Shown here one piece after another: positions 204 to 35,266 of a stretch of DNA of 35,266 nucleotides. Numbering within the stretch: the first letter of the stretch is position 1; each line of letters begins with the position of its first letter. Under the pieces are notes generated by a model, which was not told the DNA's origin, searched no databases, and was given only the letters and a program-made list of their open reading frames with translations. The position numbers and the translations under genes are program-made. Source of the DNA: a virus (Duplodnaviria; Heunggongvirae; Uroviricota; Caudoviricetes); the IMG/VR virus record IMGVR_UViG_2645727970_000011, positions 1-35,266 of that record, one strand, 5' to 3'.

Positions 204-1172
204 TTAGTAGGTTATTTTTGTTGCGAATACTTCGCCTTTTACGATGGCTGTTATGATATTTTTAGCAACATCTTCTGATGCGCCAACCTTGATAAGGTCA
301 GCAAGTATTTTGTTATTTACTTCTTTCCGGTGAGCTTTATCCTTTGCTCTGCGCTCTTCTTCGTCCTTGATTCTTTTTTCTTCTGCTATTCTGGCTTGCT
401 CTTTTGCTTCAGCCTCGCGCCGGATTCGTTCAGCCTCCTCCTGTGCTTTTCGGCGTTCTGCTTCAATTGCCGCCTGCTTTTCTCTTTCAGCTCGTTCTGC
501 TGCCTCTTTTGCTTCGCGCTGTGCTCGTTGCTCGGCTTCAATGCGTTCACGCTCTGCACGTTCCGCTGCGGCCTTAGCTTCTGCTTCTCGCCTTGCTGCT
601 GCTTCAATTTCGGCTTTTGCCTTTGCTTCGGCTTCTGCTCTGGCTTTCTCTTCAGCTTCTCTTTTTAAGCGTTCTTCATGCTCTCGCTTTTCCTGCTCCG
701 CTTTGAGTCTTGCCTCTTCTCTTTGGCGGTCAAATTCGCGATCCATCAAAATCGCTATTTCATGGTCAGACTCAATTTGCTTTGCGAGAGCTTCAGCTGC
801 TGCCTTAGCTTCTTCTTCGGCTTTAATCCGCGCCTGTTCTTCCTCATAATCAGTAAGAGGCTGGCGCGCCTTGGCTTTCAGTTCATCAAGGCGATCGCGC
901 ACTGTCTTGCGGTTAGCATCAATTAGCTTTGGAATTTCCTTCAGTTCAGCAACAAGGTCTTTACCAAGACCATCGAGATATGTTTTCGTCTGCGCAACTT
1001 TATACGCCAGAGAAGCGATCTCCTTTCTGCCCTTTGCCGTTGTGATATCAGGCACAAAGGACATAACTTCACGTTCAACCTTTTGAAGGATTTCTTCAAT
1101 CTGGTCGGCAGACTGAAATACAGTCATTGCATTTGCTTTTTCAATAACAACTAAATCTGTTACTTCACTCAT
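204..1172 (-). CDS. Hypothetical highly charged coiled-coil protein (322 aa) of the pL operon
   Basis: Track ORF; central ~200 aa is E/A/K/R-rich repeat (AEEKARAEAEAKAKAEIEAAARREAEAKAAAERAERERIEAEQRAQREAKEAAERAEREKQ) between non-repetitive N- and C-terminal domains; GGAGG-type SD upstream of the ATG at 1172. Confidence 0.75.
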   Translation of the reverse strand: MSEVTDLVVIEKANAMTVFQSADQIEEILQKVEREVMSFVPDITTAKGRKEIASLAYKVAQTKTYLDGLGKDLVAELKEIPKLIDANRKTVRDRLDELKAKARQPLTDYEEEQARIKAEEEAKAAAEALAKQIESDHEIAILMDREFDRQREEARLKAEQEKREHEERLKREAEEKARAEAEAKAKAEIEAAARREAEAKAAAERAERERIEAEQRAQREAKEAAERAEREKQAAIEAERRKAQEEAERIRREAEAKEQARIAEEKRIKDEEERRAKDKAHRKEVNNKILADLIKVGASEDVAKNIITAIVKGEVFATKITY

Positions 1173-9927: not shown

Positions 9928-10096
9928 CCCATCCCAATCACTTCAATACCAGAAAGAAAGCGTCGAGCGGGCTTTAACGTGCGCTAACTGCGGTCAGAAG
10001 CTGCATGTGCTGGAAGTTCACGTGTGTGAGCACTGCTGTACAGAACTGATGAGCGATCCGAATAGCTCAATGTACGAGGAAGAAGACGATGAATGA
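9920..10096 (+). CDS. ninF: NinF (58 aa)
   Basis: MLSPSQSLQYQKESVERALTCANCGQKLHVLEVHVCEHCC... closely matches lambda NinF as I recall it; internal ATG of track ORF 9863..10096. Confidence 0.8.
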   Translation: MLSPSQSLQYQKESVERALTCANCGQKLHVLEVHVCEHCCTELMSDPNSSMYEEEDDE

Positions 10097-10811
10097 GTTA
10101 ATAAATGGCAATGCCATCAAAATGACAAGCATTGAAATCGCTGAGTTGGTGGGAAGTCGTCATGACAAGGTGAAACAATCTATTGAACGACTGGCGGCTC
10201 GAGGTGTGATCCGAAATCCCCCAATGGTGGTTTTCGAAAAAATCAATAACTTAGGATTACTTCGTGGCGTAGAGGCTTACGTTTTTGAGGGAGAACAAGG
10301 TAAGCGAGACAGTATTGTCGTTGTAGCCCAGTTGTCGCCGGAATTCACCGCTCGTCTTGTTGACCGTTGGCGAGAGCTTGAAGACGCTGCGGTTAATATC
10401 CCCAAAACTCTACCAGAAGCGTTGCGCCTTGCTGCTGATCTTGCTGAGCAGAAAATGCAACTGGAAAACCAGCTCGCAATTGCAGCACCTAAAGTTGAGT
10501 TTGCCGATCGCGTTGGCGAGGCCAGCGGAATTTTGATTGGAAACTTTGCAAAGGTTGTTGGAATTGGTCCAAACAAACTGTTTGCGTGGATGCGCGATCA
10601 CAAAATCCTTATTGCTTCAGGTTCCCGGCGCAATGTGCCAATGCAGGAATATATGGATCGCGGCTATTTCACAGTGAAAGAAACAGCGGTCAATACAAAT
10701 CACGGAATACAGATATCGTTCACCACAAAAATCACCGGGCGTGGTCAACAGTGGCTGACCAGAAAGCTGCTCGATAACGGAATGCTGAAAGTAACAGGGG
10801 AGGCTGCTTAA
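10089..10811 (+). CDS. Rha-family phage regulator with C-terminal antirepressor (KilAC/Ant-type) domain, 240 aa
   Basis: N-terminus MTSIEIAELVGSRHDKVKQSIERL fits the Rha domain pattern; C-terminal half resembles antirepressor C-domains; family assignment from memory. Confidence 0.6.
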   Translation: MNELINGNAIKMTSIEIAELVGSRHDKVKQSIERLAARGVIRNPPMVVFEKINNLGLLRGVEAYVFEGEQGKRDSIVVVAQLSPEFTARLVDRWRELEDAAVNIPKTLPEALRLAADLAEQKMQLENQLAIAAPKVEFADRVGEASGILIGNFAKVVGIGPNKLFAWMRDHKILIASGSRRNVPMQEYMDRGYFTVKETAVNTNHGIQISFTTKITGRGQQWLTRKLLDNGMLKVTGEAA

Positions 10812-11460: not shown

Positions 11461-11645
11461 ACGCCACAATTCAAACGATACCAGAGCTTCTTATCCAGAC
11501 ACGAGGCAATCAGACCGAAGTGGCGAGGATGCTTTCCTGCGCAAGAGGAACAGTGCTCAAGTACAACCGAGACAGCAAAGGCGAGCGTCATGTAATAGTT
11601 AACGGCGTCCTGATGGTCAAACAGGGCAAGAGGGGAAGACGATGA
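11457..11645 (+). CDS. ninH: NinH-like protein (62 aa)
   Basis: Motif GNQTEVARMLSCARGTVLKY and VNGVLMV resemble lambda NinH from memory. Confidence 0.7.
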   Translation: MNATIQTIPELLIQTRGNQTEVARMLSCARGTVLKYNRDSKGERHVIVNGVLMVKQGKRGRR

Positions 11646-12160
11646 GCATAAGAGAACTAAACCTCACCAAAGAGCAGCACGAGTGGCTGAATGGCTGGCT
11701 TGAACTGTGGGGCGCATGGGTTTATTCAGGTCGTCTGGAAAAGCGCATGAGCAGCGTAATAGCGAAGTTCATGGAGAGCGTAGAGCCTGGAAGAATTATG
11801 ACAAGGCCAATGTGTAATGATGATGATGGAATGTTGATTTCTCAGGTCGTCGATTCCGTCATGTACATTGACAAGAAAGCCTTTGGCATCCTCCTCAGCT
11901 ACTACGCTCATGGTTCATCTAAGCGAGCAATTGCATCCTACTATCACGCGACTGCAAAGCCACGCAAGATGTGTGGACGTGGTGGCGAGGGATGGAGAAA
12001 ACCTTCACTGGCAACCTGTAGAAACGAAATTGACGACATCCTGAAAGCGTCGTTATTTGTTTTATACCAGCCAATGCAAAATGCTTTCAAAATGCGTAAA
12101 CGTGTTGAGAAAGTTAAGCATGTTGCTGTTAAAAGCCTTGACATGCAATTAGCCATTTAG
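11642..12160 (+). CDS. Q: Late-gene antiterminator Q (phage 82/21-type family), 172 aa
   Basis: Last gene of the nin region, immediately upstream of a TTGACA/CATAAT promoter and a short leader terminator; Cys-rich segment; family assignment by position and recollection. Confidence 0.65.
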   Translation: MSIRELNLTKEQHEWLNGWLELWGAWVYSGRLEKRMSSVIAKFMESVEPGRIMTRPMCNDDDGMLISQVVDSVMYIDKKAFGILLSYYAHGSSKRAIASYYHATAKPRKMCGRGGEGWRKPSLATCRNEIDDILKASLFVLYQPMQNAFKMRKRVEKVKHVAVKSLDMQLAI

Positions 12161-12167
12161 CCATAAT
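12138..12167 (+). promoter_or_regulatory. pR'-like late promoter overlapping the 3' end of Q
   Basis: TTGACA (12138..12143), 18-bp spacer, CATAAT (12162..12167). Confidence 0.6.
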
Positions 12168-12177
12168 TAGAGGGTAA

Positions 12178-12220
12178 GCTGCCGTTAGTGACTCTTAAGT
12201 TGCAACGGTGGCTTTTTTTA
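12178..12220 (+). terminator. tR'-like leader terminator
   Basis: Stem gctgccgtt / aacggtggc (two G-U pairs) with 17-nt loop, followed by seven T (12213..12219); begins about 10 nt after the predicted transcription start. Confidence 0.55.
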
Positions 12221-12223
12221 TTT

Positions 12224-12298
12224 GGGTCAGTCGTATAAAGGTCATTACGGAAGGCTGTTAACCTTCTTATCGTGGTTCGAGTCCACGCTGTCCCGCCA
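12224..12298 (+). tRNA. tRNA-Asn (anticodon GUU), 75 nt including encoded CCA
   Basis: Hand-folded cloverleaf: acceptor GGGTCAG / CTGTCCC (one U-U mismatch), anticodon stem GAAGG / CCTTC with loop CTGTTAA, T-arm CGTGG-TTCGAGT-CCACG, discriminator G and CCA. Not run through tRNAscan. Confidence 0.6.
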
Positions 12299-12303
12299 AA
12301 CAT

Positions 12304-12379
12304 GCTGGTTTAGCTCCAATGGTAGAGCGGTCGCCTTGTAAGCGAATGGGTAGCGGTTCAAGTCCGTTAACCAGCACCA
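12304..12379 (+). tRNA. tRNA-Thr (anticodon UGU), 76 nt including encoded CCA
   Basis: Hand-folded cloverleaf: perfect 7-bp acceptor GCTGGTT / AACCAGC, D-arm GCTC-CAATGGTA-GAGC, anticodon loop CTTGTAA, T-arm AGCGG-TTCAAGT-CCGTT, discriminator A and CCA. Confidence 0.65.
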
Positions 12380-12466
12380 TAACTGAGCCGTAGCCACTGG
12401 CTATCCTGAATTCATAAGTGATAGTTACGCTGCGGCCTTCTACACATGACCTTCGTGAAAGCGGGT

Positions 12467-12502
12467 GGCAAGAGGTTGCGCTAACAACCTCCTGCCGTTT
12501 TG
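12467..12502 (+). terminator. Hairpin with U-rich tail downstream of the tRNA genes
   Basis: ggcaagagg / cctcctgcc stem (one mismatch) followed by GTTTTG. Confidence 0.3.
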
Positions 12503-12621: not shown

Positions 12622-12945
12622 ATGAAGATGCCAGAAAAACATGACCTGTTAGCCGCCATTCTCGCGGCAAAGGAACAAGGCATCGGGGCAATCCTTGCGT
12701 TTGCAATGGCGTACCTTCGCGGCAGATATAATGGCGGTGCGTTTACAAAAACAGTAATCGACGCAACGATGTGCGCCATTATCGCCTGGTTCATTCGTGA
12801 CCTTCTCGACTTCGCCGGACTAAGTAGCAATCTCGCTTATATAACGAGCGTGTTCATCGGCTACATCGGTACTGACTCGATTGGTTCGCTTATCAAACGC
12901 TTCGCTGCTAAAAAAGCCGGAGTAGAAGATGGTGGAAATCAATAA
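12622..12945 (+). CDS. S: Holin S, lambda class I, with dual-start motif (107/105 aa)
   Basis: Translation essentially identical to lambda S as I recall it ([39 protein letters not shown]...); Met1-Lys2-Met3 dual start at 12622 and 12628. Confidence 0.95.
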
Positions 12946-14040: not shown

Positions 14041-14538
14041 ATGAAATCATTAACCCTCTTCAATCAACCAATTCGTATCGGTGAAGATGGCATGATCTGC
14101 CTCACTGATATGTGGAAAGCCAGTGGTAAAAGTGAATCTGAATCGCCTTACCACTACCTGCGAAACAAGCAGACCAAAGAGTTCTTAGCCGAGCTGGAGA
14201 AAAACCACGAATCTGTGGTTTTTACTGAGCGCGGTGTACACGGTGGAACATATGGCGGGAAGTTTGTTGCTTACGATTATGCGGCTTGGTTAAACCCCGG
14301 GTTCAAGTACGCGGCCTATAAAGTCCTCGATGACTACTTCACCGGAGAACTTCAGCATCGCAACAGCTTAAGTGCGCAGCTCAACATGAAATGTCATGAG
14401 TTTGACCAGAAGAAAGACATGGCGAGCTTCTGCGGACAAGGGCTGGCAGCATGGCGCTATACGAAGCCAGTGTTGGTCGCTGAGATTAACTCCCTGGCTA
14501 ACCAGCTGCAGATTACGATCCCCGGGCTTCCGGGATGA
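14041..14538 (+). CDS. KilA-N domain DNA-binding protein (165 aa)
   Basis: N-terminal region IRIGEDGMICLTDMWKASGKSESESPYHYLRNKQTKEFLAEL fits the KilA-N pattern as I recall it. Confidence 0.6.
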   Translation: MKSLTLFNQPIRIGEDGMICLTDMWKASGKSESESPYHYLRNKQTKEFLAELEKNHESVVFTERGVHGGTYGGKFVAYDYAAWLNPGFKYAAYKVLDDYFTGELQHRNSLSAQLNMKCHEFDQKKDMASFCGQGLAAWRYTKPVLVAEINSLANQLQITIPGLPG

Positions 14539-17244: not shown

Positions 17245-19443
17245 ATGGCAGAAAAAAAGATGACTGACTGGCATCGCAAGGTGCTGTGCAACTTTGATAA
17301 TGCCTGGTCAGCAACGCAGGATATGCGTAAGCAGATTATTGAGGCTCAACGTTTCGTCCGGGTGTCCGGCGCACAGTGGGAAGGCAGCACAAACGCTGGT
17401 TACTCATTTGATGAAGGCAGGTTTGAGCATTACCCGCGCTTTGAACTGAATAAGATTGCCCGTGAATGTGATCGCATCATTGGCGAGTATCGACAGAATC
17501 GCATCAGCGTTAAATTCAGGCCGAAGGATGACAAGGCATCGGAAGCGTTAGCCGAAAAGATGAACGGCAAATTCCGCGCTGATTATCAGGAAACATCCGG
17601 TGGCGAAGCGTGTGATAACGCATTTGATGATGCTGTAACGGGCGGATTCGGTTGTTTCCGCATGTGTGCTGATTACGAAGATGAAATGGATCCGAGTAAC
17701 GAGCAGCGACGCATCAGCCTTCTTCCTGTTTACGACCCGGCGACATGCGTCTTCTTCGATCAGGACAGCAAGCAATATGACCGCTCTGATGCCATGTGGG
17801 CTATGGAAATGTTCTCCATGACGCCTAAAGCGTTCGAGGCTGAATACCCTGATTCCATCGCGGCAAGCCTTTCTCGTGATGACACTGGTACTCGGTATGA
17901 CTGGTCAACGCCTGACGCCATCTATGTTGGACGCTACTACGAAGTCCGCATAGAGAAGGTGAAGCTCACAGCATGGCGTAACCCTGTCAGCGGAGAAACG
18001 GCAATCTATGATGAAGAGCAAATCAAAGATATTGTCGACGAGCTGACCGATGGTGCATTCGAACTGATTGGCGAGCGAACGGTGAAGAAACGCCGAGTTT
18101 ATTGCGGTCTTCTGTCTGGCGCTGAATGGCTGGAAGAACCGAAGCGTATTCCGGGCGAACATATTCCTCTCATCCCGGTATATGGGCGTCGTTCATTTGT
18201 TGATAATCAGGAGCGAATCGAAGGCCACGCAGCAAAAGCGATGGATGCACAGCGTCTTGAGAACCTGATGGTTTCCATGATTGCAGATAACGCTACTCAG
18301 GCTGGCGGCGATGGCATTCCTGTAGTTGATGTTGACATGATTCCTGGTCCTCTTGCCACTCATTGGGCGGAGCGCAACAAAAAGCGCCCGGCGTTCCTGC
18401 CGATGGTCAGTTTGAAAAACAAAAACGGAGATATTACTGCGCAGGCTCAGGTCAGCAGTTATACGCCTTCGACACAAATGCCTCCAGCTCTTGCCGGGCT
18501 ATTGCAGTACACCGGAACGGCTATTCAGCAAATTACAGGTGCGTCGCAGCTTGAGAACATGCCGAGCAACGTCGCCACCGATACCGTTGATAGCATCTTT
18601 AACCGGATGGACACGCAGTCCTATATCTACATGGACAACATGGCTAAATCCATGCGCCGTGCTGGCGTCGTGTGGCTTTCTATGGCTCGTGAAGTCTATG
18701 GCAGCGATACGCCAATGCGCATCGTTAATGAGGATGGCAGCGATGACGTGGCGCTGATGACTGGTGAAGTGGTTGACCGTCAGGCAGGGCAGGTTATCGC
18801 GCTTAACGACCTTTCGCAGGGTAACTATGAAGTGACTGTCGATGTCGGTCAGTCGTTCGCTACTCGCCGTGATGCAACGGTTAAGTCGTTACTTTCCATG
18901 CTGGCACTTATCCCGCCAGGAACGCCGAAGCATGACCTTGTATCATCGATGATTCTCGACAATATGGACGGCGAAGGGATGGACGACCTGAAAGAATACA
19001 ACCGCAATCAGTTGCTTCTGTCTGGCGTTATCAAGCCGAGAACGCCTGAAGAACAGCAAATGGTTGAGCAGGCGAAACAACAACAGGCCAGTCAGCCAGA
19101 TCCGGCTATGGTTGCAGCGCAAGGTCAGCTTCTTGCAGGTCAGGCTGAATTGCAGAAAGCGCAGAACGAACAGGCAGCCATTCAGGTTAAAGCATTCCAG
19201 GCACAGACTGATGCTCAGGTTGCAGCGGCAAACGTTGTGAAAATCCTCGCATCTGCCGATAGCCAGCAGAAATCTGATATCCGCGAGGCTCTGAAACTGC
19301 TCGGACAGTTCCAGCAACAGCAAGGAGACAATGCCCGTGCTGATGCAGAGCTTGTCCTGAAAAGTCAGGCACAGGGTCATGCGCAGCGCATGGACATCAG
19401 CAGCATCCTGCAAAAATCAACTCAGCAACAACCACAGCAGTAA
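17245..19443 (+). CDS. Portal protein, P22 gp1-like (732 aa)
   Basis: Segments RRRVYCGLLSGAEWLEEPKRIPGEHIPLIPVYG and C-terminal EEQQMVEQAKQQQASQPDPAMVAAQGQLLAGQAELQKAQNEQ resemble the P22 portal as I recall it. Confidence 0.9.
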   Translation: MAEKKMTDWHRKVLCNFDNAWSATQDMRKQIIEAQRFVRVSGAQWEGSTNAGYSFDEGRFEHYPRFELNKIARECDRIIGEYRQNRISVKFRPKDDKASEALAEKMNGKFRADYQETSGGEACDNAFDDAVTGGFGCFRMCADYEDEMDPSNEQRRISLLPVYDPATCVFFDQDSKQYDRSDAMWAMEMFSMTPKAFEAEYPDSIAASLSRDDTGTRYDWSTPDAIYVGRYYEVRIEKVKLTAWRNPVSGETAIYDEEQIKDIVDELTDGAFELIGERTVKKRRVYCGLLSGAEWLEEPKRIPGEHIPLIPVYGRRSFVDNQERIEGHAAKAMDAQRLENLMVSMIADNATQAGGDGIPVVDVDMIPGPLATHWAERNKKRPAFLPMVSLKNKNGDITAQAQVSSYTPSTQMPPALAGLLQYTGTAIQQITGASQLENMPSNVATDTVDSIFNRMDTQSYIYMDNMAKSMRRAGVVWLSMAREVYGSDTPMRIVNEDGSDDVALMTGEVVDRQAGQVIALNDLSQGNYEVTVDVGQSFATRRDATVKSLLSMLALIPPGTPKHDLVSSMILDNMDGEGMDDLKEYNRNQLLLSGVIKPRTPEEQQMVEQAKQQQASQPDPAMVAAQGQLLAGQAELQKAQNEQAAIQVKAFQAQTDAQVAAANVVKILASADSQQKSDIREALKLLGQFQQQQGDNARADAELVLKSQAQGHAQRMDISSILQKSTQQQPQQ

Positions 19444-19533
19444 TTAACCCATAACGTGCAATGGCTGTCTTTATGAGGCCTGGCACCCTATTGCCTTCCG
19501 ATGGGCTGAACATCGAGTAAACAGGGGTAACAA

Positions 19534-20427
19534 ATGGACCAGATGGCAGAAAACACACCAGAAGTTGAAATCGAAACCGACGCGTCAGAGCAGATTCCTG
19601 ATGATGTCGAACTGGCTGAAGAAGTCGAAACAGAAGATGGCAGTGAGTCCTCCGGCAATGATGCAGAGGAAGCTACTGAAACTGATGACGACGAATCAGA
19701 ACAGGAATTCTACTTTGGTGACGAAAAGCTGGATTCGCCAACCAGCGAAGATGGCGCAGAGCATGGACTGGTAAAACACCTGCGCAAGACGATTAAAGAG
19801 AAAGACCGCGAGCTGAAAGAGCTGATGCGTCAGTCTCAGAAACCCGTCGAGCAGCAGCCGGTAATAACTCAACCACCGCGAATGCCAAAACTGGATGATG
19901 AGGACATCGGTTTCGATGAAGAAATCTACCAGCAACGCATGGCTAAGTGGGCAGAGGATAACGGAAAGTACCAGCAACAGGAGATGGCTCGCAAGCAGAA
20001 GGAGCAGGAGCTTCAGGCTGCCTATCAAGAGCGATTATCCAAATATCAGCAACGTGTTAAGGCTCTCAAAGTTCCTGGCTATCAGGAAGCAGAACAGGCC
20101 GTACTCGAGGAAATCCCCATCGAGACACAAAACGCGATCCTGTTTGAGTCAGAGAAGCCGGAAATCGTTGTTCTGGCGCTCGGTCGCAACGCTGAACTGC
20201 GCAAGCAACTGGCAGAAGCTACCAACCCCGTAGCAATTGGTCGTCTGCTGGAACGTATCGAATCGAAGGCCAGAGTCATGCCAAAAGCAAAAACCACGGC
20301 AGCCACAACCCCGACAGTTAAGGGGAGCAACGGCGCAGTAATCAACAACCTCGGCAAATTGAAAGCCAAGGCGCTGGAAACTGGTGACTGGACGCCGTAT
20401 TTCGCCGCTAAAAAGGCAAAAAAATAA
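19534..20427 (+). CDS. Scaffolding protein, P22 gp8-like (297 aa)
   Basis: Position between portal and coat; very acidic N-terminus and basic helical C-terminus. Confidence 0.75.
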   Translation: MDQMAENTPEVEIETDASEQIPDDVELAEEVETEDGSESSGNDAEEATETDDDESEQEFYFGDEKLDSPTSEDGAEHGLVKHLRKTIKEKDRELKELMRQSQKPVEQQPVITQPPRMPKLDDEDIGFDEEIYQQRMAKWAEDNGKYQQQEMARKQKEQELQAAYQERLSKYQQRVKALKVPGYQEAEQAVLEEIPIETQNAILFESEKPEIVVLALGRNAELRKQLAEATNPVAIGRLLERIESKARVMPKAKTTAATTPTVKGSNGAVINNLGKLKAKALETGDWTPYFAAKKAKK

Positions 20428-30856: not shown

Positions 30857-30924
30857 AGTTGAAGCCCCAACTGCGGGAACAGTCAGGGCTTCGGTATCAA
30901 CAAATCGGATTAGGAAATATTGAC

Positions 30925-31803
30925 ATGAAAAGTATAGCAAAGGCACAAAACGATTTCACCATCTTCAAATTCGGCGACAGTGAAATCCGCGTCATCAACA
31001 AATGCGGTGAGCCGTGGTTTGTAGCAAAAGATGTTTGTGATGCTTTAACCCTGACTAACTCACGCAAGGCGCTTACTGCACTTGATGACGATGAAAAGGG
31101 AGTAACTTTAAGTTACACCCTTGGTGGTGAGCAGAATCTAAGCATTGTTAGCGAATCAGGTATGTATACATTGGTTCTGCGCTGCCGCGATGCTGTCAAT
31201 AAAGGTTCATTACCGCACAAATTCCGCAAGTGGGTAACAGCAGAAGTTCTGCCTTCAATTCGCAAACATGGCGAGTATGTGAAAGGCAAGAAAACCACTG
31301 TTGAGGAAAGAACACCGCTACGAGATGCAGTAAACATGCTGGTAGGAAAGAAAGGACTTCGCTATGACGATGCATACAATATGGTTCATCAGCGTTTTGG
31401 TATTGACAGCATTGATGAACTTTCAATTGAACAAATCCCGCTGGCCGTAGAGTACATCCACAGGGTAGTGCTTGAAGGTGAATTCATCGGAAAACAAGAG
31501 AAGAAAACCAACGAGCTTTCTGCAAAAGAAGCAAACAGTCTTGTATGGTTATGGGATTATGCCAACCGCTCACAGGCATTATTCCGCGAACTGTATCCGG
31601 CATTAAAACAAATTCAATCGAACTATTCCGGCAGATGCTACGACTATGGTCATGAGTTCTCGTATGTTATCGGAATGGCGAGAGACGTTTTAATCAATCA
31701 CACACGAGATGTTGATATCAATGAGCCAGACGGACCAACGAATCTTTCCGCATGGATGAGACTTAAGAATAAAGAATTACCTCCTTCAGTACATAACTAC
31801 TGA
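30925..31803 (+). CDS. ant: Antirepressor Ant with Bro-N/AntA-type N-terminal domain (~292 aa)
   Basis: ATG at 30925 with AGGA SD (track ORF starts at TTG 30859); N-terminal [30 protein letters not shown] is a Bro-N/AntA-type signature; position after arc as in P22. Confidence 0.75.
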
Positions 31804-34108: not shown

Positions 34109-35266
34109 TCACTCCACCTTCTCATCAAGCCAATCCGCCCACCACTGCATCATTTCTCTGCGCTTATCGAGATACTGAGCATGGTTGTAAATACCGCGCA
34201 CAGATCCGCCGTTGGCATGTGCCAGTTGCACTTCAATAGCGTCAGCAGGCCATTCGTGCTCGTTCATAATTGTGCTGAATTCATGCCTGAATCCGTGACC
34301 GCTTTCCAGACCCTCATAGCCGATTTGTTTGATCACAAGCAATACCGCGTTCTCGCAGATTGGCTTCTTCTTATCGTTGCGCCCGGCAAAAACAAACTCT
34401 GAGACTGGTTTGGTGATTGAGCTTAGCGTAGTGAGAAGTTCAACCACCTGGTCTGACATCGGGACCACATGAATTTTGCGTCCCTTCATCACACTGGCGT
34501 CGATGGTGATAATCCTGTTTTCAAAATCGACGTTCTTCCATAGCATGGAACGAAGCTCTTTCGTTCTTAGGGCAGTGTAGCGTAAAACTTTGGTCGCAAT
34601 GAGCGATACGATACTTCCTGAAAATGTTGCCAGTGCTTTGTTGAATGCAGGGATCTGGTCTGCAGGAAGAAACGGGAAGTTCTTCTTGCGGTATCCCTTC
34701 ATGGCGTCAGCAAGGTCAGGTGCCGGGTTATATTTAGCCCTACCAGTGACAATAGCGTAACGGAAAACCTCGCCGCATCTTCTGCGTGCTTTGTTGGCTC
34801 GCTCCATTGCGCCGCGATCTTCAAATCTGCGGATTACTTCCAGCAGTTGCATCGGCTCAATATCCTGAATTTCAAGACCGCCGATGATGGGTAAAATGTC
34901 GTCATCAAACATTTTGGCAAGTTCAGTTGCATAGCCTACTGACCAGACTTGCTTCTTGTGCTCGTACCATTCCTTGTAAATCGCACTAAAGGAATTGTTG
35001 TTAGACGAAGCCTTTTTCGCTTTTACCGGATCGATGCCAACCGAGATGTCTTTCCTCGCAGTCCATGCTTTATCCCTTGCCTCCTGCAAAGTCATAAGCG
35101 GATATTTTCCGACGGTCAGGATTTTCTCCTTACCGTCAATCTTGTAGCGAAGCTGCCATACCTTTTTCCCTGATACAGGGACATAAAGGTACAGGCCATT
35201 ACCATCGAGAAGGCGGTATGGTTTTTCTTTCGGCTTTGCTGCTTCAATCTGCTTAACGGTGAGCAT
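34109..35266 (-). CDS. int: Tyrosine integrase, P4-type (385 aa)
   Basis: ATG is exactly the last three bases of the window; N-terminal arm-binding-like domain (LTVKQIEAAKPKEKPYRLLDGNGLYLYV) and C-terminal catalytic region with conserved R, H-x-x-R and terminal Y (GIYNHAQY). Confidence 0.85.
   Translation of the reverse strand: MLTVKQIEAAKPKEKPYRLLDGNGLYLYVPVSGKKVWQLRYKIDGKEKILTVGKYPLMTLQEARDKAWTARKDISVGIDPVKAKKASSNNNSFSAIYKEWYEHKKQVWSVGYATELAKMFDDDILPIIGGLEIQDIEPMQLLEVIRRFEDRGAMERANKARRRCGEVFRYAIVTGRAKYNPAPDLADAMKGYRKKNFPFLPADQIPAFNKALATFSGSIVSLIATKVLRYTALRTKELRSMLWKNVDFENRIITIDASVMKGRKIHVVPMSDQVVELLTTLSSITKPVSEFVFAGRNDKKKPICENAVLLVIKQIGYEGLESGHGFRHEFSTIMNEHEWPADAIEVQLAHANGGSVRGIYNHAQYLDKRREMMQWWADWLDEKVE

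Follow-up and report, generated by a model that had tools for sequence, protein, structure and literature searches.

The phage DNA examined here, a single stretch of 35,266 nt that we refer to as the window, carries exactly two tRNA genes, both on the + strand: a tRNA-Asn with anticodon GUU and a tRNA-Thr with anticodon UGU, which lie together at the start of the late operon. The pair is already known, as the annotated tRNA-Asn/tRNA-Thr cassette of phages 21 and Sf6, and it illustrates neatly how an old question is being answered, that of why a small temperate phage should have a tRNA gene or two. The explanation that we favour, and regard as reasonably probable, combines two roles, in that a cassette expressed late and in dependence on Q would keep particular codons readable and at the same time supply nuclease-resistant replacements for host tRNAs. 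The Thr member would be a nuclease-proof spare for a host tRNA that P2 Old destroys, as described in 2025 for the phage 21 allele (PMC12445682). The tRNA-Asn has the same sequence in phages of very different mosaic make-up, and its host counterpart is another target of this nuclease family.

Two tRNA genes lie between the late promoter and the holin gene

ARAGORN, applied to the whole window, and the Rfam tRNA model RF00005 independently returned the same two genes (Table 1). The Rfam scores were 55.3 bits (E = 1.9e-9) for tRNA-Asn and 61.2 bits (E = 4.5e-11) for tRNA-Thr, both above the gathering score of 29, and on these values chance is excluded for both genes; the tRNA-Asn/tRNA-Thr pair of phage P1 scores higher still, at 73 bits each. 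We thus confirm that both genes are real and correctly identified. An earlier, sequence-only reading of this DNA had proposed the same isotypes, the span 12224-12379, a 5-bp spacing and encoded CCA ends on both genes, all of which the two programs reproduced, with ARAGORN rejecting neither candidate and reporting the anticodons as gtt and tgt. The proposed location, downstream of a pR'-like promoter and leader terminator and upstream of the holin gene, also agrees with the features found here. The A/U-rich spacer is presumably the processing site of the pair, and 242 nt separate the end of tRNA-Thr from the holin gene.

Table 1. Features of the late leader, tRNA cassette and flanking genes in the window.
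Feature	Position	Strand	Evidence
Late-gene antiterminator Q, phage 21/Sf6 type, 172 aa	11642..12160	+	Pfam PF06530 Phage_antitermQ, E = 1.6e-25
pR'-like late promoter, TTGACA-18 nt-CATAAT, overlapping the 3' end of Q	12138..12167	+	Promoter scan, 11/12 matches
Leader terminator tR': 39-nt hairpin (12176-12214), then U7AUUU	12176..12223	+	RNAfold
tRNA-Asn (anticodon GUU)	12224..12298	+	ARAGORN; Rfam RF00005
Inter-tRNA spacer AACAT, 5 nt	12299..12303	+	Sequence
tRNA-Thr (anticodon UGU)	12304..12379	+	ARAGORN; Rfam RF00005
Conserved 3' tail of the cassette, with stable hairpin	12380..12445	+	RNAfold, alignment
Second hairpin, then GUUUUG; possible extra late-leader terminator	12467..12500	+	RNAfold
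Dual-start holin/antiholin, lambda S type	12622..12945	+	Pfam PF05106, E = 2.4e-30

The tertiary nucleotides conserved in tRNAs are U8, A14, G18-G19, U33, T54-Psi55-C56 and A58. The tRNA-Asn has all of these, while the tRNA-Thr has C14 in place of A14, at a position that is variable among its relatives. The tRNA-Thr of phage 21 also has C14, though it is functional in vivo (PMC12445682). Together with a G27•A43 mismatch this makes the tRNA-Thr non-canonical as well, and the sequence-only reading was silent on both features. In RNAfold, the z-scores of the two tRNAs were weak (-1.5 and -1.7) and the minimum-free-energy structure of tRNA-Thr was not a cloverleaf; thermodynamic folding was treated as uninformative for tRNAs, and we relied instead on covariance models and covariation.

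The late leader places the tRNAs behind a strong terminator

In Sf6, the homologue of the window Q is gene 59, which carries the annotation of a Q-like antiterminator, and Q would be needed for transcription to continue past the leader terminator to the tRNAs. Within the spacer of the pR'-like promoter, ATTAGCCA and TTTAGCCA form a direct repeat, at a position equivalent to the Q-binding element of phage 21. The promoter aligns with the annotated pR'/QBE of phage 21 and with the annotated late promoter of Sf6, and from this homology we infer its function. It was the sole strong match in the promoter scan, in which a separate promoter for the tRNAs was sought and neither a candidate nor space for one was found.

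The tR' hairpin has a predicted stability of -20.8 kcal/mol (z = -4.55, with 0 of 200 shuffles equally stable), and its U-run ends one base upstream of the start of tRNA-Asn. It is essentially invariant in five aligned phages, the T-run being one T shorter in Sf6 and phage L, and the records of phage 21, Sf6 and L mark its homologue as a terminator. The promoter/terminator scan did not call tR', presumably on account of its long bulged stem; the element is established by the RNAfold result and by these annotations of homologues.

Downstream of the tRNAs, the cassette tail is shared by the window with phage 21, Sf6 and the E. coli E2348/69 prophage up to ACGCTGCGGCCTTCT, and homology to phage 21 stops at its end (12445). 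The hairpin within this tail (approximately 12387-12436) is also stable (-23.7 kcal/mol, z = -4.34). The hairpin that follows (-17.8 kcal/mol, z = -2.37) could conceivably act as an additional terminator in the late leader; the phage L record has a terminator annotated at a similar spot, downstream of the tRNA genes and upstream of the holin gene, in a sequence that is not alignable with the window. The holin gene is the first protein-coding gene in the late operon. Its product begins MKMPEK, with two Met codons three codons apart, and the homologues in Sf6 are annotated as S107/S105-like.

The pair belongs to a widespread mobile cassette

The pair is a mobile cassette of the phage 21/Sf6 type, consisting of the tR' hairpin, tRNA-Asn, 5 nt, tRNA-Thr and a tail of about 70 nt, and it is also annotated in BTP1, SPN9CC, vB_SosS_Oslo, mEp506 and Bas106. 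The sequence-only reading had considered Asn and Thr unexpected isotypes for the position between Q and the lysis genes; the pair itself stands, and the isotypes are not unusual there, being annotated in many records. Overall, we found the cassette in 60 phage records and the pair in 369 of 5,426 complete E. coli genomes, and the 5-nt spacer recurs in 79 of the 81 Asn-Thr arrays in IMG/VR. A prophage of E. coli E2348/69 carries the 156-nt pair at 100% identity, and over the whole 541-nt region the identity to Sf6 is 98.2%. The conserved block begins at the tR' hairpin, occurs in three different upstream contexts and is followed by differing lysis genes; we take the cassette to be a probable selected module, and count this in support of the explanation that we favour. 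In some relatives, namely phage L and JLK-2012, the second tRNA position looks decayed.

Covariation and identity elements point to functional tRNAs

The sequence-only reading had noted a U-U mismatch in the acceptor stem and a 3-bp D stem in tRNA-Asn. Both are present in the Rfam alignment, as U4•U69 and as U13 facing U22, and the anticodon stem (GAAGG/CCUUC) has its full 5 bp. The accompanying suggestion that this gene may be degenerate does not survive, given a tRNA-Asn sequence that is identical in five phages (the phage of the window, Sf6, phage 21, phage L and JLK-2012), strong covariation, and a U4•U69 mismatch that is constant among relatives while the adjacent pairs vary. Across the 31 unique variants of this family, 15 of the 21 stem pairs are double-changed, and the covariation score was 0.570, compared with 0.151 in shuffles (0 of 500 matched the observed score) and at most 0.127 in slid registers, for a set in which the D arm was held constant by the search pattern. 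We therefore rejected decay of tRNA-Asn on the extent of this covariation and on its identity across distant mosaic phages, and U4•U69 is a fixed trait of the temperate-phage lineage. The tRNA-Asn is conserved even more strictly than the tRNA-Thr.

The identity elements of E. coli AsnRS are the anticodon G34-U35-U36 and the discriminator G73. The window tRNA-Asn has both, G73 being shared by 90% or more of the 31 family variants, and by these elements it is predicted to be a substrate of the E. coli enzyme. For E. coli ThrRS, the identity elements are G1-C72, C2-G71, G35 and U36. All of them occur in the tRNA-Thr, together with discriminator A73, and it is likewise a predicted substrate. Within the Thr family, pair 2-71 is C-G in 26 of 26 variants and pair 1-72 is G-C in 25 of 26, neither showing covariation, while the acceptor pairs 3-70, 5-68, 6-67 and 7-66 do co-vary. 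In total, 10 of the 21 pairs of this family are double-changed and 0 of 500 shuffles reached its score, with the anticodon arm held constant by the search pattern.

The anticodon arm of the window tRNA-Thr reads GUCGC-CUUGUAA-GCGAA, with the G27•A43 mismatch followed by U28-A42. Among Thr genes that were reached via the neighbouring Asn gene, 14 of 18 unique variants have exactly this arm, which sits on several distinct acceptor stems. The window and phage 21 differ in this tRNA solely at position 26, which is G in the window and A in phage 21 (1 of 76 bases). Sf6 also has A, and G26 is the minority allele (24 of 120 IMG/VR loci, a set selected by the anticodon arm, the invariance of which is there by construction).

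ACA and Asn codons are enriched in phage genes

The codon ACA occurs 16.3 times per thousand codons in the late genes and 5.4 times in a host sample of 14,725 codons (odds ratio 3.0, p = 5e-13), and it is three-fold enriched in early as well as late genes. Asn codons are 1.4-fold enriched in the late genes, AAT alone 1.8-fold, and of the Asn codons in the coat gene 16 are AAC and 3 are AAT. The codons AGA (6.2-fold) and AGG (5.4-fold) are more enriched than ACA and ATA (2.8-fold) about equally so, and the phage carries no tRNA for any of these. Because of the three-fold enrichment of ACA, codon supply probably contributes to the role of the cassette.

The anticodon stems lack cleavage motifs of the host tRNAs

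The main target of P2 Old is the host tRNA-Thr(UGU), tRNA-ThrU, which is the sole UGU tRNA in MG1655 and in which the cut falls on the 3' side of the C in paired CNG motifs (Govande et al., NAR 2025, PMC12445682). The phage 21 homologue, tRNA-Thr21, resists Old, protects cells and rescues ACA decoding, and this resistance requires a shorter anticodon stem together with an altered CNG motif; tRNA-ThrU with the CNG alteration alone was not resistant, and overexpressed host tRNA-ThrU, unlike the phage allele, gave little or no protection (PMC12445682). These protection assays used plasmid-expressed tRNA-Thr21 of the A26 allele rather than phage infection, and the need for the anticodon in rescue was shown for a related rescue tRNA, Thr6 (PMC12445682).

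Where host thrU has CUG/CAG and A27-U43, the window tRNA-Thr has UCG at 28-30, CGA at 40-42 and G27•A43. Its anticodon arm is identical to that of tRNA-Thr21, including the 27•43 mismatch and the C28U/G42A changes in the CNG motif, and the G26 by which it departs from the tested A26 allele is one base outside the stem. The window tRNA-Thr thus keeps both Old-resistance features. With the UGU anticodon, the altered CNG motif and the shortened stem all present, the G26 form is predicted to be an Old-resistant rescue tRNA.

A comparable difference exists for tRNA-Asn. Host asnT has CGG/CCG, which is a paired CNG, and U39-C40, while the window tRNA-Asn has AAG/CUU and C39; it is without the Old and PARIS cleavage motifs of host tRNA-Asn and keeps a 5-bp anticodon stem. 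Chance alone will frequently make a diverged tRNA depart from the host in its anticodon stem. In Klebsiella-type tRNA-Asn the CNG motif is restored. The PARIS effector AriB cleaves Lys(UUU), then Thr(UGU), which is also a major target, and then Asn(GUU), and the Thr and Asn tRNAs of phage T5 help to neutralise PARIS (PMC12409363). The window cassette should not defeat PARIS alone, because it has no tRNA for Lys(UUU), the primary target of AriB. Gifsy-1 HepS also cleaves Thr tRNAs (PMC13043305); its relevance to a P22-like podovirus is doubtful, as its trigger is siphovirus tail-tip proteins. The window begins immediately to the right of the cIII/kil region and reaches as far as the start of int, and the recombination/anti-RecBCD segment (the trigger of Old being a RecBCD inhibitor) lies outside it.

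A probable combined role of the cassette

In the explanation that we favour, the cassette is placed at the very head of the late operon and the tRNAs would be made only when polymerase reads through tR'. The position of the tR' U-run leaves no room for a promoter of their own, so that read-through would be required. This would take place mainly once Q has modified the polymerase at pR', with N-antiterminated early transcripts as a possible further source. Host tRNA-processing enzymes would then excise the tRNAs from the long late transcript, and CCA addition would be unneeded since CCA is encoded. During late protein synthesis, the tRNAs would allow continued decoding of ACA (Thr) and AAC/AAU (Asn), with the phage tRNA-Thr evading Old by means of an anticodon stem that is one pair shorter (G27•A43) and an altered CNG motif (U28-A42). 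By inference, the tRNA-Asn is most likely a parallel case, a spare that resists cleavage and stands in for a host tRNA that these nucleases hit as a secondary target.

Two other accounts each retain one part of this combination. The tRNAs may do no more than add decoders for ACA and AAC/AAU and thereby speed late synthesis, in a manner unrelated to host nucleases. The codon enrichments described above are what this would predict, the AAC-rich coat gene matches an argument made for phage L (PMC8022706), and tRNA-ThrU is the only UGU tRNA of MG1655 (PMC12445682). Against this stand AGA, AGG and ATA, which are similarly or more enriched and have no phage tRNA, and the destabilising G•A Thr anticodon arm, whose presence on several acceptor stems is left unexplained. 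Host tRNA-Asn is made from four gene copies, of which we retrieved asnT, and its supply should not limit. The failure of overexpressed host tRNA-ThrU to give more than slight protection from Old, when the phage allele protects (PMC12445682), is also hard to place under supplementation, and we consider supplementation an unlikely account when taken by itself. The reverse emphasis makes the whole cassette a dedicated counter-measure against Toprim-family tRNA nucleases (P2 Old, PARIS AriB) of rival P2-like prophages or P4-like satellites. Old and AriB share Thr(UGU) and Asn(GUU) as targets, and resistant copies of both would stand at the first-transcribed position of the late operon; the tRNA-Asn would be a second resistant replacement, with U4•U69, U13•U22 and AAG/CUU as escape adaptations and not defects. 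We treat this broader claim as possible and tentative. The escape features are not universal among Asn+Thr pairs, because Klebsiella-type tRNA-Asn regains the CNG motif and the P1 tRNAs keep cleavage motifs, a point that also counts against the explanation that we favour.

The remaining alternatives give the tRNAs a different use, or none. Low read-through of tR' in the prophage might feed them to the host, where they would change translation or protect the lysogen against toxins that target tRNAs. In lambda, pR'-type promoters are constitutive and terminators leak, and the cassette is common in resident prophages (the 369 genomes above); however, tR' is strong and adjoins the first tRNA, and expression is coupled to Q through the place of the cassette at the start of the late operon. 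Colicin E5 cuts inside the anticodon. Escape from it by the phage tRNA-Asn was rejected, since the anticodon loop is identical to that of host tRNA-Asn, and a benefit to the lysogen seems improbable on the whole. The cloverleaves could instead serve as entry sites for RNase P or RNase E that detach the leader and give the late mRNA a defined or more stable 5' end, with decoding mainly incidental. The tRNAs do lie in an untranslated leader right after the terminator, and a further conserved hairpin follows them. On the other hand, the anticodons, the discriminators and the pairs that specify synthetase identity stay constant where other stem pairs co-vary, which is the pattern of decoding tRNAs and not of mere processing signals. 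Rescue by tRNA-Thr21 needs UGU-type decoding, as indicated by the anticodon requirement of Thr6 (PMC12445682), and P22 (PMC8022706) and lambda manage without such elements; we regard a processing role of this kind as very improbable. Least credible to us is that these are decaying pseudo-tRNAs that hitch-hike with the mosaic junction between Q and the lysis genes. U4•U69 and U13•U22 in Asn, C14 and G27•A43 in Thr, Rfam scores below those of the P1 pair, the non-cloverleaf fold of tRNA-Thr and the apparent loss of the second position in phage L and JLK-2012 could all be read in this way, but both families show extensive covariation, tRNA-Asn is identical in five distant mosaic phages, and the phage 21 Thr allele is functional experimentally (PMC12445682). 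For tRNA-Thr, decay is already essentially refuted.

Comparison with tRNA genes of other phages

Stx-converting lambdoid phages have an Ile/Arg tRNA cluster downstream of Q and pR', at the head of the late operon. The window has Asn and Thr at this position, and ARAGORN found no Ile or Arg tRNA in it. Phage T5 has the same isoacceptors, Thr(UGU) and Asn(GUU), and in T5 as in the window both are without U39 by the AriB cut site and without a paired CNG. The T5 tRNAs are only 62-64% identical to those of the window, and close kinship was rejected on this basis; in addition, T5 is virulent and produces about 24 tRNAs from their own promoters. The ARAGORN search of the window returned no tRNA-Lys that would complete the PARIS-neutralising trio.

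P1 is a temperate enterobacterial phage with the same isoacceptors in the same order and adjacent to each other, with a spacer of 2 nt. Its pair belongs to another lineage (59% identity for Asn, 82% for Thr) and lies in a different genomic context, upstream of tciABC. The P1 tRNA-Thr retains the paired CNG and a full stem and the P1 tRNA-Asn retains the AriB-type UAAUCA, so that the escape features of the window are absent.

The cassettes of phages 21 and Sf6 correspond to the window in position, in the order pR'-tR'-Asn-5 nt-Thr-lysis genes, in the encoded CCA and in the tR' hairpin. Phage 21 differs in its promoter and Q-binding region, for which the window is of the Sf6 type, and in having a pinholin where the window has a lambda-S-like holin. 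The tRNA-Asn genes of both phages are 100% identical to the window copy.

A conserved Asn-Thr tRNA pair ahead of the lysis genes

Across the 35,266-nt window ARAGORN predicts two tRNA genes and no more, and both lie above the Rfam gathering threshold of 29, with E-values referring to the entire window searched against all families. The sequence-only reading had placed them at the same coordinates, 5 nt apart (spacer AACAT) and each with an encoded CCA end, and its Asn and Thr isotypes, with anticodons gtt and tgt, were reproduced by the ARAGORN run. Both observation and interpretation were correct. The irregularities it saw in tRNA-Asn are also real: U4 lies opposite U69, and the D stem is reduced to 3 bp by U13 opposite U22. 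tRNA-Thr is likewise non-canonical: it has C14 where A14 is usual, and its anticodon stem is topped by a G27•A43 mismatch.

Features of the window discussed in the text, with supporting evidence
Feature	Position	Strand	Evidence or remarks
Early-left-operon ORF	204-1172	-	322 aa, without Pfam match
ANT(KilAC)/Rha-type antirepressor-like gene	10089-10811		nin region
Q-family antiterminator gene	11642-12160		upstream of tRNAs; Pfam
Promoter (pR')	12138-12167		upstream of tRNAs; TTGACA-18-CATAAT, 11/12 matches
39-nt hairpin (tR')	12176-12214		upstream of tRNAs; -20.8 kcal/mol, z = -4.55; then U7AUUU to 12223
tRNA-Asn (gtt)	12224-12298	+	ARAGORN; Rfam tRNA covariance model, 55.3 bits, E = 1.9e-9
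tRNA-Thr (tgt)	12304-12379	+	ARAGORN; Rfam tRNA covariance model, 61.2 bits, E = 4.5e-11
Conserved hairpin	~12387-12436 (within 12380-12445)		3' of tRNA-Thr; -23.7 kcal/mol, z = -4.3
Weaker hairpin	12467-12500		downstream of tRNAs; short U-run
Lambda-S-type dual-start holin	start 12622		downstream of tRNAs; followed by endolysin and Rz
KilA-N/ORF11CD3 protein gene	14041-14538		between Rz and small terminase gene
sar antisense RNA	30857-30923	-	Rfam RF00262, 71.6 bits
Ant-like ORF	30859-31803	+	Bro-N and P22_AR_C domains; start overlapped by sar RNA
Tyrosine integrase ORF	34109-35266	-	start codon at the window's final base

The window represents a temperate phage or prophage of the P22-like (Lederbergvirus-type) group. 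Its genes include those for an integrase, an Ant protein of P22 type and a tailspike that has the P22 head-binding domain; sar and the Ant-like ORF form a P22-type immI region, which marks the window as P22-like. Its closest overall matches, in mosaic fashion, are the E. coli phages phiv205-1, CUS-3, 720R6 and HK620. The left end lies just right of the cIII/kil region and, because the window runs from there to the integrase start, the xis-to-kil segment, including any RecBCD inhibitor, falls outside it. A hypothetical ORF of the same length and position as the early-left-operon ORF occurs in the prophage of E. coli E2348/69.

The only strong promoter match near the tRNAs is the late promoter pR'. 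Since the U-run of the leader terminator tR' ends one base before tRNA-Asn, transcription of the pair would require read-through, provided by Q-modified polymerase and possibly also by N-antiterminated early transcription via Q. The phage pair would probably follow the general route of E. coli tRNA processing, in which RNase P would form the 5' ends, an endonuclease would cleave within the A/U-rich spacer, and trimming from the 3' side would stop at the encoded CCA.

The terminator and tRNAs form a mobile block

The Ile/Arg tRNA set that the sequence-only reading named for this position, asking for the Asn/Thr pair to be confirmed, is presumably that of Stx-converting phages. Asn and Thr are the normal isotypes of this cassette, as they are annotated in the Sf6 and phage 21 records and reported at this position in P22-like phages in the genome papers of ε34 (PMC2629481) and phage L (PMC8022706), both as Asn(GTT) and Thr(TGT). 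The Sf6 record lists the late promoter, qut site, tR' terminator and both tRNAs, the tRNAs being labelled as resembling those of phage 21. A matching arrangement (pR', Q-binding element, terminator, tRNA-Asn, tRNA-Thr, holin) is annotated in phage 21's curated record. Over the 541-nt region, identity with Escherichia phages HF4s, 720R6 and Bas106 and with Shigella phage Sf6 is 98-99%. The 156-nt pair is present in 369 of 5,426 complete E. coli genomes, and 60 phage records contain at least 80% of it.

An alignment of the window, phage 21, Sf6, phage L and the E2348/69 prophage places the start of the conserved block exactly at the tR' hairpin; the block spans both tRNAs and ends about 65 nt past tRNA-Thr. 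What precedes it is of three kinds: in phage 21 that phage's own promoter with the Q-binding element, in the window a promoter of Sf6 type, and in E2348/69 an HNH endonuclease gene. Downstream, phage 21 has a pinholin whereas the window has a lambda-S-type holin. As both flanks vary, the terminator-plus-tRNA block behaves as a mosaic module of its own. The hairpin 3' of tRNA-Thr belongs to this block; a T-run follows it in phage 21 but not in the window. In the E2348/69 prophage the HNH gene (19434-19946) lies between the Q gene and the cassette; the prophage matches the window's tRNA pair with 100% identity, yet its virion genes are of another type.

Both tRNAs are maintained

The window shares an identical tRNA-Asn sequence with Sf6, phage 21, phage L and JLK-2012. 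Scanning IMG/VR with its distinctive D-arm, UCGUAUAAAGGUNAUUACGG, returned 120 loci, of which 79 had the Asn-Thr arrangement and others Asn alone, Asn-Gly or Asn-Phe-Thr-Arg; about 15 lay within large tRNA arrays of big phages. Where this D-arm occurs in big-phage arrays of 10-16 genes, the acceptor and T stems are fully compensated. Across 31 unique 72-nt variants, standard pairs fill 92% of cells, 15 of 21 pairs show changes on both sides, and the covariation score is 0.570, against 0.151 ± 0.014 for shuffled alignments (0/500 as high) and no more than 0.127 with the pairing register shifted. At least 90% of the variants have G as their discriminator base. U13•U22 falls within the search pattern, making its invariance uninformative, but U4•U69 lies outside it. 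At 4-69, 17 unique variants from the temperate-phage lineage have U•U, and other lineages have U-A, U-G or C-G. Because the mismatch is fixed while the neighbouring pairs 5-68, 6-67 and 7-66 co-vary, U4•U69 is a stable lineage trait and not erosion. Together with the identity among phages and the covariation, this leaves the earlier worry that tRNA-Asn is degenerate unfounded; judged from sequence, the gene is not decaying.

tRNA-Thr differs from that of phage 21 and Sf6 only at position 26 (G in the window, A in both), G26 being a common minor allele (24 G versus 94 A in a separate set of 120 IMG/VR loci, retrieved with the Thr anticodon arm). Its family comprises 26 unique variants chosen by anticodon arm, which makes the arm invariant by construction. 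Standard pairs fill 94.9% of cells, two-sided changes occur in 10 of 21 pairs, and the observed covariation was reached in 0/500 shuffles. Pairs 3-70, 5-68, 6-67 and 7-66 co-vary, and C2-G71 (26/26) and G1-C72 (25/26), which we take to be the ThrRS identity pairs of the tRNA-identity literature, are kept. Position 14, almost universally A, is C, T, G or A among relatives with the same arm. In an unbiased set of 18 unique Thr variants reached via the adjacent Asn gene, the arm GUCGC-CUUGUAA-GCGAA is exact in 14, across at least four different acceptor stems. Small IMG/VR arrays with the Old-resistant Thr arm usually carry Asn(GUU) alongside, other gene orders included.

Altered relatives exist. 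The annotated tRNA-Thr of JLK-2012 (1581-1656) is a chimera of a phage 21-type 5' half and a 3' half like host thrU; it has anticodon-stem mismatches, is rejected by ARAGORN (Rfam 49.0 bits) and is followed by a tRNA-Gly. In phage L/ST64T (1281-1352), the Thr position holds a second gene annotated as tRNA-Leu(TAA), 72 nt long with C33 and a 4-nt deletion relative to Thr, which ARAGORN also rejects (Rfam 42.1 bits); this gene is a derivative, altered or in decay, beside a tRNA-Asn that is still identical. In both P1 (2425-4216) and JLK-2012 (1501-2495), an Asn-Thr pair is followed by tciA/tciB, suggesting a larger shared accessory module; in JLK-2012 an STnc100 sRNA is strongly matched (107 bits) immediately downstream.

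Proposed roles: codon supply and nuclease resistance

One explanation for the pair is pure codon supplementation. As the sequence-only reading had proposed comparing, late genes differ from the host: relative to 41 annotated MG1655 genes (14,725 codons), ACA is enriched (late genes 16.3 and early genes 18.7 per thousand codons, versus 5.4; odds ratio 3.0, p = 5e-13), implying an unusual phage dependence on the ACA-reading tRNA, and Asn codons are commoner (51.9 versus 37.7 per thousand; odds ratio 1.4). However, AGA (6.2-fold) and AGG (5.4-fold) are enriched beyond ACA, and ATA (2.8-fold) to about its level, with no phage tRNA for any of them. The host has four tRNA-Asn gene copies, of which asnT was the one used here for comparison, and the Thr anticodon stem retains a destabilising G•A mismatch. 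Supplementation by itself is thus the weaker explanation, and supply and nuclease-proofing are complementary rather than mutually exclusive benefits.

For tRNA-Thr, nuclease resistance is supported by experiments on the phage 21 allele. Govande et al. (NAR 2025, PMC12445682) found that the P2 nuclease Old cleaves host tRNA-ThrU behind the C of paired CNG motifs and that phage tRNA-Thr(UGU) species rescue cells; tRNA-Thr21 of phage 21, tested directly, protected against Old and resisted cleavage in vitro, whereas host tRNA-ThrU, when overexpressed, protected little or not at all. Resistance was put down to a shorter anticodon stem plus CNG motif changes (C28U/G42A in tRNA-Thr21). The window's anticodon arm is exactly that of tRNA-Thr21: host thrU has CUG at 28-30, CAG at 40-42 and A27-U43, and the window UCG, CGA and G27•A43. 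A second Toprim nuclease, AriB of PARIS, attacks Lys(UUU), then Thr(UGU) and then Asn(GUU); its cut falls between positions 40 and 41, beside a U36-A-A-U39 motif, and PARIS is neutralised by the T5 tRNAs for Lys, Thr and Asn in combination (PMC12409363). With a slash at the cut, this site reads UAAUC/A in host thrU and UAAUC/C in host asnT, compared with UAAGC/G and UAACC/U in the window's Thr and Asn. The PARIS specificity paper also suggested base-specific D-loop contacts by the nuclease.

tRNA-Asn may be a second resistant spare. Host asnT has paired CNG motifs (CGG/CCG). The window's tRNA-Asn has AAG/CUU instead, together with C39, and so lacks the recognised features of Old and AriB; this is consistent with such a role. 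Against this, it keeps a full 5-bp anticodon stem, and CNG alteration alone left tRNA-ThrU unprotected (PMC12445682). A Klebsiella-type variant regains CNG through a compensatory A28-U42 to C28-G42 change, and in the independent adjacent Asn-Thr pair of P1, Thr keeps paired CNG and Asn keeps UAAUCA. The cassette also has no tRNA-Lys and so should not by itself defeat PARIS. We found no experiments on the cassette tRNA-Asn, and the role of this strictly conserved gene is where a modest interest remains.

The pair itself is known from annotation that goes back to the records of phage 21 and Sf6, and its Thr member, as the phage 21 allele, is already known as an experimentally supported anti-Old rescue tRNA; what the window contributes is a 1-nt allele already present in public genomes.
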